Of a stretch of 54,039 nt of DNA, positions 19,099 to 44,458 are shown one piece after another (within the stretch, counting starts at the first letter, position 1; every line of letters starts with the position of its first letter). The translations under genes and the position numbers were made by a program. The notes below the pieces were generated by a model. It worked only from the letters and a program-made list of their open reading frames with translations, ran no database searches and was not told the DNA's origin. Origin of the DNA: a virus (taxonomy: Duplodnaviria; Heunggongvirae; Uroviricota; Caudoviricetes); IMG/VR virus record IMGVR_UViG_2541047747_000003; one strand, given 5' to 3'.

Positions 19099-19283
19099 CA
19101 ATGAAAAACGAAATTAAAGATCTGCAAATAGATATTCAGCGCGACGAGCATGATTTGGAAACTGTACGACAAATACAGGTTTTCCACATGCGAGAATTGC
19201 TTGCGCTTAAAGAGCTTGAAAGAAAGCTAGTGCAATCAATATCTGATCGCAAAAGACTGGTTGCACGTTACGGGGGTAAATAA
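19089..19283 (+). CDS. Hypothetical protein
   Basis: 64-aa ORF, coiled-coil-like, coupled to neighbours. Confidence 0.45.
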   Translation: MVVTMKNEIKDLQIDIQRDEHDLETVRQIQVFHMRELLALKELERKLVQSISDRKRLVARYGGK

Positions 19284-20005
19284 TGAATTTGGAATCTATT
19301 CTTAAATTCCACCTCCCAAAATCACCGCGTTTGTCAGATGAAAGCCGGGGCACGTCCCCAGACTCGCTTAATACTACTGATGCACTAACCGCAGCAGGTA
19401 TGGCGCAATCGCGCGTAGAGCTTGGTTATAGCGCTTTTTTAGGGAAGATGGAACTGTCGCAAGCCGAAAAACACAGGGCCGTAGTTTTGCTTACAGAGCG
19501 TTTAAGAGCTATGGCAAAAGATTACGAATACGTCATGGAGCTGGACGAGGACAAACGCAATGATCTTATTATTCTTGTTGCCGTTTTCGCGTTTCGGGAT
19601 TACTGCCAGAGTGCCGCGACAGAAAAAACTTGTATGGATTGCGGCGGATATAAATTTACGTTTGACGACTACGGAGAAAAACACCTTTGCAAAAAATGCA
19701 AGGGGCATGGAAAAGTTCGCAATCATTGTAAACAATGCAAGGGCCGTGGCGAAGTACCGGATAAAGCAGCCAGCGAAGCGGCGGAAATGCCAGTGTTCAA
19801 AACGTGCCAGCATTGCGGCGGGCGCGGGTACTCGCGTTTCCCTGTAGATCTTGTCCGGCAGGCGGTTAATCAGCTTGTTTTCCCGGTAAGCCGATCAACG
19901 TGGTGGAAGAAATACCGTGCTTTCTATGAAGACGCCATTACTGAATTGTTCAAAGAAGAGGCGCGGGCTGATAACGAAATTAAACTAGTGACACGGGGTG
20001 AATAA
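19283..20005 (+). CDS. Cysteine-rich zinc-finger protein with four CxxCxGxG repeats (possible Q-like late antiterminator)
   Basis: 240 aa; CMDCGGYK, CKKCKGHGK, CKQCKGRGE, CQHCGGRGY; sits after ninG-rusA, the usual Q position. Confidence 0.45.
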   Translation: MNLESILKFHLPKSPRLSDESRGTSPDSLNTTDALTAAGMAQSRVELGYSAFLGKMELSQAEKHRAVVLLTERLRAMAKDYEYVMELDEDKRNDLIILVAVFAFRDYCQSAATEKTCMDCGGYKFTFDDYGEKHLCKKCKGHGKVRNHCKQCKGRGEVPDKAASEAAEMPVFKTCQHCGGRGYSRFPVDLVRQAVNQLVFPVSRSTWWKKYRAFYEDAITELFKEEARADNEIKLVTRGE

Positions 20006-22245: not shown

Positions 22246-22494
22246 ATGGACGTTTACGAGGATGTTTACCTGGCACCTTCATCTTATAGCTTTTATTTTC
22301 TGATAAATGGAAAGGCTTATAGATGCGATTCTGACGGGGTGAGAGAAGAAAAGCTGTTTTGCACTAAAGGATACCTGGATGATTTGGTTTTTGCCGGGAT
22401 ATTTCGTAAACGCCCGGCTAACCTGGAAGAAGAAATGTTGATTGAGGTAATTAAAAATGAAAATAAGGGTAAGTTATTTCCGGGCGAAAGATAA
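22246..22494 (+). CDS. Hypothetical small protein
   Basis: 82-aa ORF. Confidence 0.45.
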   Translation: MDVYEDVYLAPSSYSFYFLINGKAYRCDSDGVREEKLFCTKGYLDDLVFAGIFRKRPANLEEEMLIEVIKNENKGKLFPGER

Positions 22495-22708
22495 GGCAAC
22501 AGGAAAGCAGATTGCGATCCTGGTTAACGAGGCGCAGTACATGTTTGTCCTTCAGCCGTGGTGTGTTGTAGATCTTAACGACAACTGTCGCCGCCACGCT
22601 GCGCGAAGTGCTGTTGGTATGAAAGGCTGGCAACCGCGCGACATGGAAAAATATTGTGAATGGAAATTGGTGGCAAAATACACGGTCGATTATAAAGGGG
22701 TTTTCTGA
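22457..22708 (+). CDS. Hypothetical small protein
   Basis: 83-aa ORF. Confidence 0.4.
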   Translation: MKIRVSYFRAKDKATGKQIAILVNEAQYMFVLQPWCVVDLNDNCRRHAARSAVGMKGWQPRDMEKYCEWKLVAKYTVDYKGVF

Positions 22709-22932
22709 TGTTTGTAAAATGTATAAAGTCTCGTTTCCCTAATCTTTTTGTGGTTGATGAGATTTACGACATAGAAACGCTAATAAGCAGAACTAACGAT
22801 ATTCAGTACATTTATGATGAAGATGGCGATCCGTGGTTTTTTTATAACGATCTCAATGGTAGCGGATTCGTTGATGGCGTTGGCGGTAATGGTGTGCCAG
22901 TTGCGCTATTTATAAATGCAAATAAGGAATGA
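22708..22932 (+). CDS. Small protein, member 1 of a tandem paralogue set
   Basis: 74 aa; shares the pattern hydrophobic-KC..S....F..G..Y.V......YI.DD.G..W.F with the next three ORFs. Confidence 0.45.
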   Translation: MFVKCIKSRFPNLFVVDEIYDIETLISRTNDIQYIYDEDGDPWFFYNDLNGSGFVDGVGGNGVPVALFINANKE

Positions 22933-23144
22933 ATATCATGTATGTTAGATGCACTGAATCAAAATCATCATGCTTTGAGGTTGGCGGAATATATACCGTA
23001 GCTCACCTGACTGGTGATGAACTTAACACCCAATACATTAAAGACGACCACGGAGACGCGTGGCGCTATTGGGATTGTTACGCGCGTGGACACGTTGCCA
23101 GCCAGTTCAGTACGGAACCGATCGCGCGTTTTGTTAAGTGGTGA
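22929..23144 (+). CDS. Small protein, member 2 of a tandem paralogue set
   Basis: 71 aa; MYVRCTESKSSCFEVGGIYTV...YIKDDHGDAWRYW. Confidence 0.45.
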   Translation: MNIMYVRCTESKSSCFEVGGIYTVAHLTGDELNTQYIKDDHGDAWRYWDCYARGHVASQFSTEPIARFVKW

Positions 23145-23153
23145 GGTAGTGTT

Positions 23154-23393
23154 ATGAGACAGAATCAGAGATACCAGTGCACATACTCACGATGCAGCGC
23201 GTTTTTTAAGAATGGCAAGATCTACGAAGTCGGAGCGGCATTGGTTGACGCAAAGGATCAGGAATATATTCACGCCATTACTGACGACCAGGGCCAGTTA
23301 TGGCGATTTTATAAGATGGGATGTGGAACTGCGCTTGTTTATGCGCGGGCTTGTGGTGGTGCTTTTGCTGCGTTTTCGTATGTAGGTGCATAA
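23154..23393 (+). CDS. Small protein, member 3 of a tandem paralogue set
   Basis: 79 aa; CTYSRCSAFFKNGKIYEV...YIHAITDDQGQLWRFY. Confidence 0.45.
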   Translation: MRQNQRYQCTYSRCSAFFKNGKIYEVGAALVDAKDQEYIHAITDDQGQLWRFYKMGCGTALVYARACGGAFAAFSYVGA

Positions 23394-23394
23394 A

Positions 23395-23613
23395 ATGATT
23401 TTAACGTGTAACGAATCGGGATTAGGTTGTTTTGAGGAAGGAGCACAGTACACGGCTGAAAAACCGATGGGATTGTCTCCTAAATTTCCGTTTATCGTCG
23501 TGACTGACACTTACGGTCACTTATGGTATGCAGGGCCGCTAGGCGGTATTGGTCGTTATGTTGTCCGTAGTTCGGATGGGGCGATGAAGGTTACTTTTAC
23601 GGAAGAAACGTAA
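23395..23613 (+). CDS. Small protein, member 4 of a tandem paralogue set
   Basis: Start chosen at MILTCNESGLGCFEEGAQYTA...VVTDTYGHLWYAG. Confidence 0.45.
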   Translation: MILTCNESGLGCFEEGAQYTAEKPMGLSPKFPFIVVTDTYGHLWYAGPLGGIGRYVVRSSDGAMKVTFTEET

Positions 23614-23711
23614 ATGTGATCTGTATCACAAGGTTTACGAAATGGCATTGTTTCGGCAGTGCCATTTTGTTATAAAGAAGCTGAAGAGAGAACGATGCGG
23701 AGGGTAGAAAA

Positions 23712-24437: not shown

Positions 24438-24761
24438 ATGACTAAATTTATCAGCGTTAAAGTTTTCCGTGGTACTTTACCGAACGAAGAAAGATTGGGG
24501 GAATTCGCCGGGCAACCTGGCGCATGTTTCCGTGTAGCCACTGAAGACGATGCGCATGTTAAATGCTTCCACGTATCGGAACCGCCTTTTAATGCAGACC
24601 ATCTTGAGGACCCGGATAGAATTAAAAGCCTAGTTTTTGCCTATCTGATGTTCCAGGGTATCGCTAATATGGAAGTGGAATTGCTTGGCGCTGAACTGGC
24701 GGCAGAATACAAAATCACTGAAGCAGAAAGTGTAGGGTCGGAAATTGAGCGCATCAAATAA
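24438..24761 (+). CDS. Hypothetical protein
   Basis: 107-aa ORF. Confidence 0.5.
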   Translation: MTKFISVKVFRGTLPNEERLGEFAGQPGACFRVATEDDAHVKCFHVSEPPFNADHLEDPDRIKSLVFAYLMFQGIANMEVELLGAELAAEYKITEAESVGSEIERIK

Positions 24762-24996
24762 ACCTTACAAAATCCGGTGTAAAGGCGAATACCCTGGGTT
24801 TACGATTGGTTGCGAATACCTGGGCCACATTGGGTACGGCCCTTTCGGTGAATTAGGGATGAATACGCTGGACGACGACGGCGACAGCCGGACGCTCGAT
24901 CTTGATACGGATGACTTCGAATATATCCCTCCAGTTACTTACCGTGCCGTAGATGATTTCCTGGCTGAACAAGAAGATGATGAAGAGGATGATTAA
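24745..24996 (+). CDS. Hypothetical acidic protein
   Basis: 83-aa ORF with acidic C-terminus. Confidence 0.45.
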   Translation: MSASNKPYKIRCKGEYPGFTIGCEYLGHIGYGPFGELGMNTLDDDGDSRTLDLDTDDFEYIPPVTYRAVDDFLAEQEDDEEDD

Positions 24997-25131: not shown

Positions 25132-25326
25132 ATGATTGAATGTCTTATCATTGCTGTGTTTCTCCTTTATATTGCTGGCGCTATCCTGATGTCTTGTTTT
25201 ATCAAATCTAATGATCTCGATCGTGGTGGTCTTGAGATTCCTTTCTGGCCTGTAGCGGTGTTTATTGCTCTCGTAGATGCCGCGCGCGCGCAGATCAAAA
25301 GGGTTATTAAGGAGCGCAAGAAATGA
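25132..25326 (+). CDS. Hypothetical membrane protein
   Basis: 64 aa with two hydrophobic helices; RBS GGGGAGAAAGAGG. Confidence 0.45.
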   Translation: MIECLIIAVFLLYIAGAILMSCFIKSNDLDRGGLEIPFWPVAVFIALVDAARAQIKRVIKERKK

Positions 25327-25505
25327 TTGAAGATGGTATATACGCCGTAACACTAATCGACAAGATGTTTTATCGCGTAGAGGGTGGTGATATTCGCGTT
25401 TGCGTTAGCGATGGTGAGTGGGTAGCGCCAATCATCAAGACGACGCGAGAAACAATTAAAATCTGGCTTGATAATGGCGATTTGGTGAAAGTTAGTGATT
25501 TGTAG
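25323..25505 (+). CDS. Hypothetical protein
   Basis: 60-aa ORF coupled to the upstream gene. Confidence 0.4.
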   Translation: MIEDGIYAVTLIDKMFYRVEGGDIRVCVSDGEWVAPIIKTTRETIKIWLDNGDLVKVSDL

Positions 25506-25610
25506 CCATAATCGCGCATAAAAAACAAATAGATTAAAATATTTCCTAACAATGCGAAATTGTAATTACCCGGCCACGAGCCGGGTTTTTGCTTTGTTGG
25601 AGGAAAATCT

Positions 25611-25811
25611 ATGTTCGACAGAATACGGGAGGCGTGCGCGTATGTGACCGGGGCCGTAACTGCTTTTTTCGGCGCGATAACCATTAATGATATTGCTGTC
25701 TTTGTGGGTATCTTATCAACCATAGGCACATTTGCCGTTAACTATTACTTCAAATCACAGGAGAACAAGCGAGCGCAAGAGGAACACGACGCGCGAATGG
25801 GGAATAAGTAA
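25611..25811 (+). CDS. Putative holin
   Basis: 66 aa, immediately upstream of the endolysin; hydrophobic segments then a charged C-terminus; RBS GGAGGAAAA. Confidence 0.55.
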
Positions 25812-42976: not shown

Positions 42977-43330
42977 ATGCCGGAAGTGTTCAGATGGACG
43001 CCGCAAAGAAGCTACAGCGTGACCAGGAAGCCAGACGTATCTGTTGTTAAGCTGGGCGATGGTTATGAGCAAAGACAGGTAAAAGGTATCAATCCATTGC
43101 TTGATAGCTACACCCTGGTGTTTAAAGGCAGTAGCGCCGGATGTGGTGATGGTGGAAACGTAGCAATCCAGGCGGAAGCATTCTTGAGGGCGCGCGGCGC
43201 GGTCGAGGCTTTTTACTGGTCGCCGTCAATGGATAACGTGCAAAGGCTTTTTGTCTGTCGGCAATGGAGCATGACTAAAGACGGGCCTTTGTACACGCTA
43301 AACGCAACGTTTGAGCAAGTTGTTGGCTAA
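42977..43330 (+). CDS. Minor tail protein (lambda M-like)
   Basis: 117 aa; first gene after the tape measure, conserved lambda tail-tip gene order. Confidence 0.65.
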   Translation: MPEVFRWTPQRSYSVTRKPDVSVVKLGDGYEQRQVKGINPLLDSYTLVFKGSSAGCGDGGNVAIQAEAFLRARGAVEAFYWSPSMDNVQRLFVCRQWSMTKDGPLYTLNATFEQVVG

Positions 43331-43527
43331 TGGGGGTTGTTATGTACGGGACTTGTGTAGTTGACAAAACTTACGCTTTTACATTGTTTGACGACTATGA
43401 GATCAACGACCTTACTGTAAAAGCTGACAACGGCGATATATGGTATCTTCACGACGTTGGTGATGGGTACGTTGGGTGTAGATCCCGGGAAGGGAAGGAG
43501 GTTTTATTTTTGGTTGATGGCGTATAA
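43330..43527 (+). CDS. Hypothetical small protein
   Basis: 65-aa ORF followed by a terminator. Confidence 0.35.
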   Translation: MGVVMYGTCVVDKTYAFTLFDDYEINDLTVKADNGDIWYLHDVGDGYVGCRSREGKEVLFLVDGV

Positions 43528-43683: not shown

Positions 43684-43932
43684 CTATAAGTTATCACGCA
43701 GATAATTAACGCCCTTATCAGTGACGAATGAATGGTTAACCTGGTTTTCATCCGTCATGATGATGAATAACTTTTCATGTAGGTATTTCGCTTTCGGGTA
43801 CAGCGTTAAACAGACCTGGTACAGTATCCCGCGCTCAATCAGCAAATCAATAAATTCGTGTTCATGATAACCGATGAGGCGGGCGGCCTGTTTCAACGTG
43901 TACACATAATCACCGTGATTGCGCCGCCCCAT
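43684..43932 (-). CDS. Hypothetical protein (accessory gene, minus strand)
   Basis: 82-aa ORF last in a three-gene minus-strand cassette. Confidence 0.45.
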   Translation of the reverse strand: MGRRNHGDYVYTLKQAARLIGYHEHEFIDLLIERGILYQVCLTLYPKAKYLHEKLFIIMTDENQVNHSFVTDKGVNYLRDNL

Positions 43933-43941
43933 GTTGCCGCC

Positions 43942-44289
43942 TTATTTATCGAATGCTGAAAGGTTATCGATACAGAAATCTTTCGCCGCTTTTTCGTATT
44001 CGCGTTTTGCTTCTGGATCGTCAGCCGGGAAACCTTTTGCGTGTATTTCACCAGGGCAAGACTGGTCCATAGAATCTGCATAATAAGCAGTGAAGCTACC
44101 ATTAATATCTTTCGGGTTCATATCTTCCACCTCATCAACTATCTGTACCGGATTAGCAGCATATTTCACTGGATGGCCTAAACTACATTCAAGAATCCTG
44201 CCTTCTTCCAGGGCTACTTCTTCGCTATCAAATAATCCGAAACACTCCTTGCTACCACTTAACCACACATCAAGACTGTATTTTTTCAT
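43942..44289 (-). CDS. Hypothetical protein (accessory gene, minus strand)
   Basis: Start chosen at MKKYSLDVWL with a GAGG RBS. Confidence 0.4.
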   Translation of the reverse strand: MKKYSLDVWLSGSKECFGLFDSEEVALEEGRILECSLGHPVKYAANPVQIVDEVEDMNPKDINGSFTAYYADSMDQSCPGEIHAKGFPADDPEAKREYEKAAKDFCIDNLSAFDK

Positions 44290-44458
44290 TTTTGTTAGCC
44301 TCATATTTGACAGGTTCGATCTGGTATCCCAAAAGGCGGTCATCCTCAGCAAGTAAAAGCGCGTCAACCAATGCTTCACCCTCGTCGTCATACAGGGCGA
44401 TAACCTTTTCCCTACCGTCTGTCATGAATACCGTCAACTTCCATAGCTTTTCAGTCAT
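44270..44458 (-). CDS. Hypothetical acidic protein (accessory gene, minus strand)
   Basis: Start chosen at MTEKLWKL with a GGAGGTG RBS; dispersed-motif copy immediately upstream. Confidence 0.45.
   Translation of the reverse strand: MTEKLWKLTVFMTDGREKVIALYDDEGEALVDALLLAEDDRLLGYQIEPVKYEANKNEKIQS

Follow-up and report, generated by a model that had tools for sequence, protein, structure and literature searches.

A copy-number-variable array of small paralogous genes in an mEpimmI-group Escherichia coli phage, with a predicted fold like that of Gp54 of phage Bas11

Four coupled small genes between u1 and a terminator-like stem-loop

The stretch of DNA analysed here, IMG/VR virus record IMGVR_UViG_2541047747_000003 (54,039 nucleotides; the window), represents essentially the whole genome of a temperate Escherichia coli siphophage of the mEpimmI group (mEp021-like), which was described in 2025 (PMC11893012). 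On its plus strand, four consecutive open reading frames (ORFs) occupy 22708-23613. They had been singled out in a first-pass annotation as a tandem array of paralogous small proteins, and all four are present at these coordinates. A prophage of E. coli strain N25 carries the array region with 100% identity, and over this region the nucleotide identity to mEp010, mEp044, mEp554, mEp013 and MagusPhagus is 81-86%. In annotated relatives the array ORFs are all labelled 'hypothetical protein'. The features of the array are as follows (aa, amino acids; pI, isoelectric point):

22708-22932, plus strand: gene A, 74 aa, pI 4.15, single Cys, phrog_31142, orthologues P0009 and P0013
22929-23144, plus strand: gene B, 71 aa (68 aa from the alternative ATG at 22938), prototype of phrog_31142, pI 5.8
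23154-23393, plus strand: gene C, 79 aa, pI 8.75 (mildly basic), phrog_31142
23395-23613, plus strand: gene D, 72 aa from ATG 23395 (listed ORF from GTG 23386, 75 aa), pI 4.84
23637-23670, plus strand: stem-loop of 15 bp just 3' of the D stop codon, followed by a weak U tract, terminator-like

Several database orthologues of gene B are called with the 68-aa start. For gene D the ATG at 23395 is likelier to be the true start than the GTG at 23386, because an AGGTG lies 7 nt upstream of it and the orthologue P0005 begins with MILTC. Each of the four genes is preceded by a Shine-Dalgarno-like sequence, and on their common strand they are separated by stop/start overlaps or by spacings of 1-10 nt, an arrangement that points to translational coupling. 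The stem-loop behind gene D, whose RNA fold centroid has a z of -3.35 against shuffles, is predicted to be a terminator-like element closing the array; in mEp010, mEp044 and mEp554 the annotation gives the homologous element as a Rho-independent terminator predicted by ARNold.

The array genes are called by PGAP and phanotate in relatives. The pooled ratio of nonsynonymous to synonymous change (pN/pS) among orthologues is 0.16 for B, 0.17 for C and 0.19 for D, and these therefore count as real genes under purifying selection. The encoded proteins are short and soluble, with neither a signal peptide nor a membrane segment in the sequences of A to D.

The four genes and a distant fifth one form a single paralogous family

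To assess the relationship of the four proteins each pair was aligned by Smith-Waterman and scored against 300 shuffles. The z values were 13.7 for A-B, 10.9 for A-C, 8.9 for B-C and 8.8 for B-D, and in these four pairs none of the 300 shuffles reached the observed score; C-D gave 3.4 and A-D 0.2. Hidden Markov models (HMMs) built without the tested subfamily and run on all 620 six-frame segments of the window recovered B (E 4.7e-14), A (3.3e-10), C (7.7e-11) and D (0.03). When the profile of the A, B and C orthologues was compared with that of the D orthologues, hhalign gave a probability of 82% (P 1.1e-5) over 62 aligned columns. The PHROG family phrog_31142 is matched by A (E 3.4e-9), B (1.6e-40) and C (1.8e-5), and gene D has no PHROG match. 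By these sequence comparisons A, B and C are clear paralogues, and D appears as a distant member that is linked mainly via B and via the common predicted fold described below. The proposal that one small domain had been repeatedly duplicated and diverged is thus upheld by shuffle scores, leave-one-out HMMs and hhalign alike.

In a family alignment of 16 sequences the invariant columns are C5, S8, F13, Y19, D36, G39 and W42. The pattern by which the array had first been recognised needs correction in two points, although the similarity itself stands. A Cys pair is not general, as A has one Cys and Cys5 alone is invariant in all four proteins; moreover, the aromatic motif YI.DD.G..W, described as C-terminal, is central and lies in the beta3-beta4 hairpin. 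The Cys pair was also considered as a metal site and rejected, given the single Cys of A and the lack of any paralogue with three or four ligands in register. At the DNA level no repeats beyond chance were found between the four genes, and the duplications are therefore either old or the copies were assembled by recombination.

A fifth member of the family is found at a separate locus:

43330-43527, plus strand: gene F, 65 aa (61 aa from ATG 43342), phrog_3249 (E 1.5e-22), pI 4.17

Gene F is located directly after a gene for a minor tail protein M-like protein (PF05939) and before a reverse-strand moron. It is matched by every family HMM with E values of 0.001-0.02 among the 620 window segments, and hhalign of the ABCD profile against a profile of nine F sequences gave 93% (P 3.3e-7) over 61 columns, that is, over the full length. 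The Smith-Waterman z for B-F is 5.6. These profile matches mark F as a further paralogue of the array family. With F included, four of the five paralogues of the window are acidic. The F family (phrog_3249) comprises hundreds of member sequences and is much commoner among E. coli genomes than the array. A two-gene reverse-strand insert is located in the tail cluster (43684-44391, minus strand) between the M-like and L-like tail genes; it encodes a protein of 81 aa that has a KilAC/ANT antirepressor domain (E 1e-6) and one of 148 aa without family match.

The predicted fold resembles that of Gp54 of Bas11

Structure prediction, which had been suggested for all four array proteins, was performed with AlphaFold2 (AF2) and the family alignment for B and D, and these two members share the same predicted fold. 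The B model has a predicted local distance difference test score (pLDDT) of 87.7 and a predicted TM-score (pTM) of 0.73, the D model a pLDDT of 87.4 and a pTM of 0.73. The two all-beta models agree in the order of their six strands and have a loop of 9 residues connecting strands 1 and 2. Both match 9axb_A, the structure of Gp54 of Escherichia phage Bas11, within 1.6 Å. Gp54 is a non-essential protein of 66 aa with a rare six-stranded barrel and a prominent beta1-beta2 loop (PMC11578894). The models contain this feature, so that the predicted fold of B and D is a six-stranded beta-barrel, SH3-like but with one strand more and with a long loop between beta1 and beta2, as in Gp54. That two models lie within 1.6 Å of a rare solved fold released in 2024 would be hard to explain as an artefact. 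A Foldseek search of the B model against BFVD returned many uncharacterised coliphage proteins of 60-135 aa with TM-scores of 0.7-0.85.

At the sequence level no relationship to Gp54 could be detected. The Gp54 model PF25180 (gathering threshold 27 bits) is not matched by A, B, C, D or F at E values up to 10, whereas Bas11 Gp54 scores 113 bits in the same search, and hhalign of the family against 12 Gp54 homologues gave a P of 0.6; sequence-level homology to Gp54 is rejected on these grounds. When the family profile was run against the sequences of the PDB, nothing scored below an E of 1.

The array occupies a recombination hot spot

The array is bordered on its left side by a small gene that is directly upstream of the same position in 21 of 21 related loci:

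22457-22708, plus strand: u1, 83 aa, phrog_38609, left border of the variable slot

We compared the slot immediately after u1 in these 21 related loci and the window (L numbers denote related loci). It holds between 0 and 5 family members, which bears out the copy-number variation among related phages that the first-pass annotation had proposed to look for. The contents seen are ABCD, ABCD', B'CD, B'X2ZCD, X1X2ZCD', B, X2, B'C and nothing, and are distributed as follows:

A B C D: window, L008, L009
A B C D': L010
A (disrupted) B: L011
B alone: L012, L013
B' C D: mEp044, L015-L017
B' C D': mEp010, L021
X2 alone: mEp554
B' and truncated C: mEp013
empty: mEp021

Among the isolated phages mEp010 and mEp044 thus carry three copies, mEp013 two, mEp554 one and mEp021 none. 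The array genes are dispensable: mEp021 has none. Gene C is the member most widely retained and is found in most related loci. Alleles at the same position have diverged considerably, as B and B' are 44% and D and D' 55% identical, and the databases contain natural deletion fusions of the types A::E, B::E, C::d4 and C::downstream ORF (P0019, P0027, P0016, P0037, P0006). The replacement of alleles, the changes in copy number and the fusions therefore suggest that the slot behaves as a recombination hot spot with interchangeable cassettes.

The distribution of the family was determined by several searches. A protein-cluster search gave 37 clusters among 5.8 billion proteins, and an exhaustive HMMER search gave 37 matches among 1.84 billion representatives, with repeat proteins, Reg_prop sensor kinases among them, accounting for about half. 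With tblastn, B matched mEp013, mEp010 and mEp044 and no others in 50,697 phage records, and neither C nor the divergent member P0055 as query had a match in the GTDB species representatives. Some part of a 1,264-bp query (u1 and the array) was matched in 35 of 5,426 complete E. coli genomes, the weakest by the u1 end alone, and the full array is present in three of them. Overall, the sequence searches yielded close orthologues alone, in E. coli prophages and mEpimmI phages.

Some relatives have additional small genes in or near the slot. The Z gene of 85 aa is located inside the arrays of L004 (4196-4459), L019 (4217-4480), L014 (793-1056) and L018 (4439-4696). In its protein, MKHLYFE..FEEGKIYCGV..ITGDDDKVYFAY, the family motif is weak, and hhalign gave 31% (P 5e-4). 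A gene of 78 aa lies between RusA and Q in L005 (mEp044; 268-504) and in one IMG/VR contig (L016, from 7), and its protein, MELINIVVKCTQSS..FFTEGKKY..DDADAWRL, shows a weak family match (HMM E 0.0013). The domain may therefore occupy a third locus in some relatives, one that is not in the window.

The array lies between Q and the lysis cassette

Two features frame the region in which the array is embedded:

19283-20005, plus strand: Q-type antiterminator gene (PF03589, E 2.9e-30), annotated as Q in mEp021 and MagusPhagus
25568-25586, plus strand: strong intrinsic terminator from the terminator scan, 25 nt upstream of the holin start, homologue of mEp021 t5 (TERM_5)

The Q gene is the first in a run of about 25 small genes, including the array, with no intergenic space from Q to 25506. 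The right end of this run is marked by the terminator, whose mEp021 counterpart t5 is reported as experimentally demonstrated (PMC11893012), and a gap of about 105 nt separates the last small gene from the holin start at 25612. No sigma-70-like promoter was predicted on the plus strand between 21718 and 25145. The sole promoter-like site near the lysis genes is a sigma-70-like GTGAAA-16-CATAAT at 25485-25512 (plus strand). From the gap-free packing and this lone site, we infer that the array is the distal part of a rightward operon that is probably antiterminated by the N-like Gp17 and expressed as delayed-early. The array had been placed in a phage early region in the first reading; it lies downstream of Q and upstream of t5 and the lysis cassette, where a classical early region would not fit, and the late operon would not either.

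The terminator lies about 56 nt downstream of the promoter-like site at 25485-25512, which gives the segment 25485-25611 the appearance of a compact pR'/tR'-type unit. Q could act there, 5.5 kb from its own gene. Directly before the lysis genes, DNA that at first seemed non-coding is occupied by an unlisted 60-aa ORF at 25324-25506 (plus strand; MIEDGIYAVTLIDKMFYRVEGGDIRV..) and a 64-aa membrane-like ORF at 25133-25327. The C-terminal part of the 60-aa ORF is found fused to a truncated gene C in the mEp013 protein P0006.

On the left side of the array, the best promoter-like site of the region (TTTACA-18-TATAAT, 11/12) spans the u1/A junction at 22718-22689 on the minus strand and is directed leftward; the total of promoter-like sites in the region is not above shuffle expectation. 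Two genes upstream of the array, an 82-aa ORF (22246-22494, plus strand) has the same position and length as mEp021_41 (249 nt, 82 aa). The annotation of the latter as 'virion structural protein' goes back to its detection by mass spectrometry in virions, although its gene is far from the structural cluster.

Related domains and look-alikes in other families

Scans of A to D, F and a further ORF, E, against Pfam, NCBIfam and PADLOC gave no meaningful family. ORF E (24745-24996, plus strand, 83 aa) was tried as another paralogue owing to its N-terminal look-alike pattern YKIRC..F.IG.EY..DDDGD and is not counted as one, as hhalign aligns only six columns. It belongs to phrog_25234 and has a strongly acidic tail with a net charge of -16. 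The A::E and B::E fusion proteins in the databases (P0019, P0027) point to deletions between the array and E.

The exhaustive search also recovered P0052, a protein of 270 aa with four tandem copies of a related domain, which matches DUF6501 (1.3e-10), DUF7244 (8.9e-6) and phrog_4927. Against the four repeats of P0052 the family gave 79% in hhalign (P 1.6e-5) over 39 columns that cover strands 1-4, and phrog_4927 is matched by B and C with an E of 8e-4. The Pfam models of DUF7244 and DUF6501 are matched by none of A to D or F (E up to 1 or 10). Taken together, these profiles suggest a link of moderate to weak strength between the family and standalone SH3-clan phage domains, of which the DUF7244 protein of KanT1 has been described as a minimal SH3 barrel (PMC13164509).

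The motif of the beta3-beta4 hairpin (I.DD.G.lW.f...G) in addition pulls multi-repeat Reg_prop sensor kinases with E values down to 6e-10 (P0039-P0060). A relationship to the Reg_prop (PF07494) beta-propellers was rejected, as the matches were judged to be motif-level (D..G.lW) and repeat-summed and not homology. Reg_prop proteins use 24-residue tandem repeats as blades, whereas A to D have no Reg_prop match, contain one motif each and, as modelled for B and D, form closed barrels; we judge the resemblance to a blade to be motif convergence.

Possible function of the array proteins

As a working reading, to which we give a little less than an even chance, the array proteins would be diversified protein-binding modules directed against host or host-defence proteins, acting as takeover or counter-defence factors and possibly as triggers of defence. 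The structural and evolutionary part of this reading is held with far higher confidence than the whole. In this scheme A to D would be expressed during lytic growth, probably from the rightward antiterminated operon, and each paralogue would have its own target among host or host-defence proteins, perhaps bound through edge-strand beta-sheet augmentation in the manner of Gp54. The array would then amount to a set of host-takeover or counter-defence factors that is dispensable and turns over fast, and these factors could also set off defence sensors. We favour protein binding because Gp54, the sole strong structural relative, binds a host immune protein, and because the slot turns over, its genes are dispensable and it is located in a lytic operon. 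Gp54 binds the antitoxin domain of CapRelSJ46 directly, by strand pairing after partial unfolding, and thereby activates CapRelSJ46 (PMC11578894). The mostly acidic character of the proteins argues as well for protein and not nucleic-acid partners.

Acidity also bears on the idea that the array encodes small barrels (SH3-like, Tudor, KOW or Sm-like) that bind nucleic acids and have a role in recombination, replication or transcript regulation, an idea that we regard as unlikely. They could be likened to nin-region proteins of lambdoid phages, as the array shares its operon with NinG, RusA and Q, and P0052 weakly matches a PHROG annotated as 'DNA binding protein'. However, four of the five paralogues have pI values of 4.2-5.8 and C alone is mildly basic, the family is missing from mEp021, which still replicates and lyses, and the best structural match binds protein and not nucleic acid.

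Alternatively, the genes may serve the lysogen, as prophage exclusion or defence factors or as decoys against other phages. Moron-like variable cassettes of temperate phages often encode exclusion functions; in E. coli chromosomes the array genes reside in prophages, and paralogue F adjoins the reverse-strand moron in the tail region. The genes of the array are, however, coupled inside a lytic operon with no plus-strand sigma-70-like promoter of their own predicted in the region given above, they have no PADLOC match, and the exclusion proteins known from this group of phages are lipoproteins whose genes lie elsewhere (PMC11893012). On balance such a role seems quite improbable.

For standalone SH3-type proteins, a function as accessories of the lysis module that modulate the endolysin or cell-wall binding has to be considered. 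DUF7244 proteins are encoded upstream of lysis cassettes in T1-like phages (Drexlerviridae) and have been proposed, without experiment, to aid lysis (Eremina et al. 2026, PMC13164509). In these phages standalone SH3 genes adjoin the lysis modules (PMC13164509), the genes for holin, lysozyme and Rz follow downstream of the array as well, and the weak profile link to the DUF6501/DUF7244/phrog_4927 repeat protein would fit. The lysis role of DUF7244 is itself a hypothesis, though (PMC13164509), and the Pfam DUF7244 model remains unmatched. Furthermore, about 2 kb with some nine genes and terminator t5 lie between array and holin, the proteins lack a signal peptide or membrane segment for periplasmic delivery, and the array is missing in mEp021 and variable elsewhere while the lysis cassette is 91-100% conserved. 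We therefore consider a lysis function very unlikely.

Finally, that the similarity is due to chance or composition, or that the ORFs are no genes, is refuted for practical purposes: the low z of A-D, the recovery of D by leave-one-out HMMs at an E of 0.03 at best and the unrelated Reg_prop propeller repeats that the family profile draws through D..G.lW stand against z values of 8.8-13.7 in four pairs, far above chance, full-length hhalign matches for D and F, a pN/pS of about 0.17 with orthologues kept across 21 loci, and confident models that converge on one rare, experimentally known fold.

Several points weigh against the protein-binding reading itself. As there is no sequence similarity to Gp54, the fold match could reflect convergence on a small barrel. 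The function of Gp54 in its own phage is unknown, with inhibition of another defence system as a possibility (PMC11578894), and its close homologues from Bas5, Bas8, Bas10 and SECphi27 fail to activate CapRelSJ46 (PMC11578894). The modelling alignments were shallow, with confident AF2 models in two of five cases for B and one of five for D, and the alignment used for D contained other subfamilies. The array proteins have no PADLOC or NCBIfam match, and purifying selection combined with presence/absence variation is compatible with any accessory function.

A more specific version of the protein-binding reading, which we consider fairly unlikely, takes the array as a modular counter-immunity repertoire. 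Slot by slot, interchangeable alleles with the Gp54 fold would be matched to different immune sensors, such as CapRel-type zinc-finger-like antitoxin domains, each allele either neutralising its sensor or being sensed by it, and the allele replacement and copy-number change among mEpimmI phages would record an arms race. If this holds true, the fold family of sensor-binding phage proteins would be much wider, with Gp54 as a single isolated representative and the many uncharacterised BFVD look-alikes in Drexlerviridae among its members.

Few phage proteins are known that a bacterial immune sensor reads directly, and Gp54 of Bas11 is one of them. The present finding gives its orphan structure natural relatives, with the same predicted fold in a sequence-unrelated family that is organised as a variable array. 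The carriers of the array belong to a common group of gut E. coli prophages, and the isolated phages mEp010, mEp013, mEp044, mEp554 and mEp021 provide a tractable test system for barrels and defence sensing. Even if the proteins are merely products of ordinary dispensable ORFs, four 'hypothetical proteins' gain a useful annotation.

Comparison with known systems

Small SH3-like or Gp54-fold accessory proteins are known as such; what is new is the predicted similarity in fold to Gp54 of Bas11, together with the cassette-like arrangement of the genes. In the PHROGs, A to C and F are already catalogued as uncharacterised phage families (phrog_31142 and phrog_3249), without a link between the two, without D and without the fold or the array organisation.

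Dense, coupled runs of small genes that are mosaic among relatives and largely dispensable are characteristic of the lambdoid nin region and similar parts of distal rightward operons. The array shares the dense coupling, the position in a distal rightward operon and the mosaicism. In contrast to the lambda nin region, its run follows Q instead of lying between P and Q, and it contains a multi-member paralogue family, of which the lambda nin region has none.

The SH3-clan domains of DUF7244, DUF6501 and phrog_4927 resemble the family in their short beta-barrel and the pattern V.C...(loop)..G..Y.V....DD.G, and they are likewise encoded upstream of lysis genes in T1-like phages. They also occur in several copies, although within one polypeptide and not as separate genes, and with about 50 aa they are smaller than the members of this family, which have about 70 aa and six predicted strands.

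The closest counterpart is Gp54 (PDB 9AXB; PF25180 'Phage antiviral trigger protein Gp54'). With 66 aa compared to 68-79 aa it is of similar size, and it is likewise a small, soluble, acidic and non-essential coliphage accessory protein with a six-stranded barrel and a long beta1-beta2 loop. The Gp54 gene is present as a single copy in a virulent Drexlerviridae phage, whereas its predicted structural relatives described here are encoded in a tandem, copy-number-variable array of a temperate phage.

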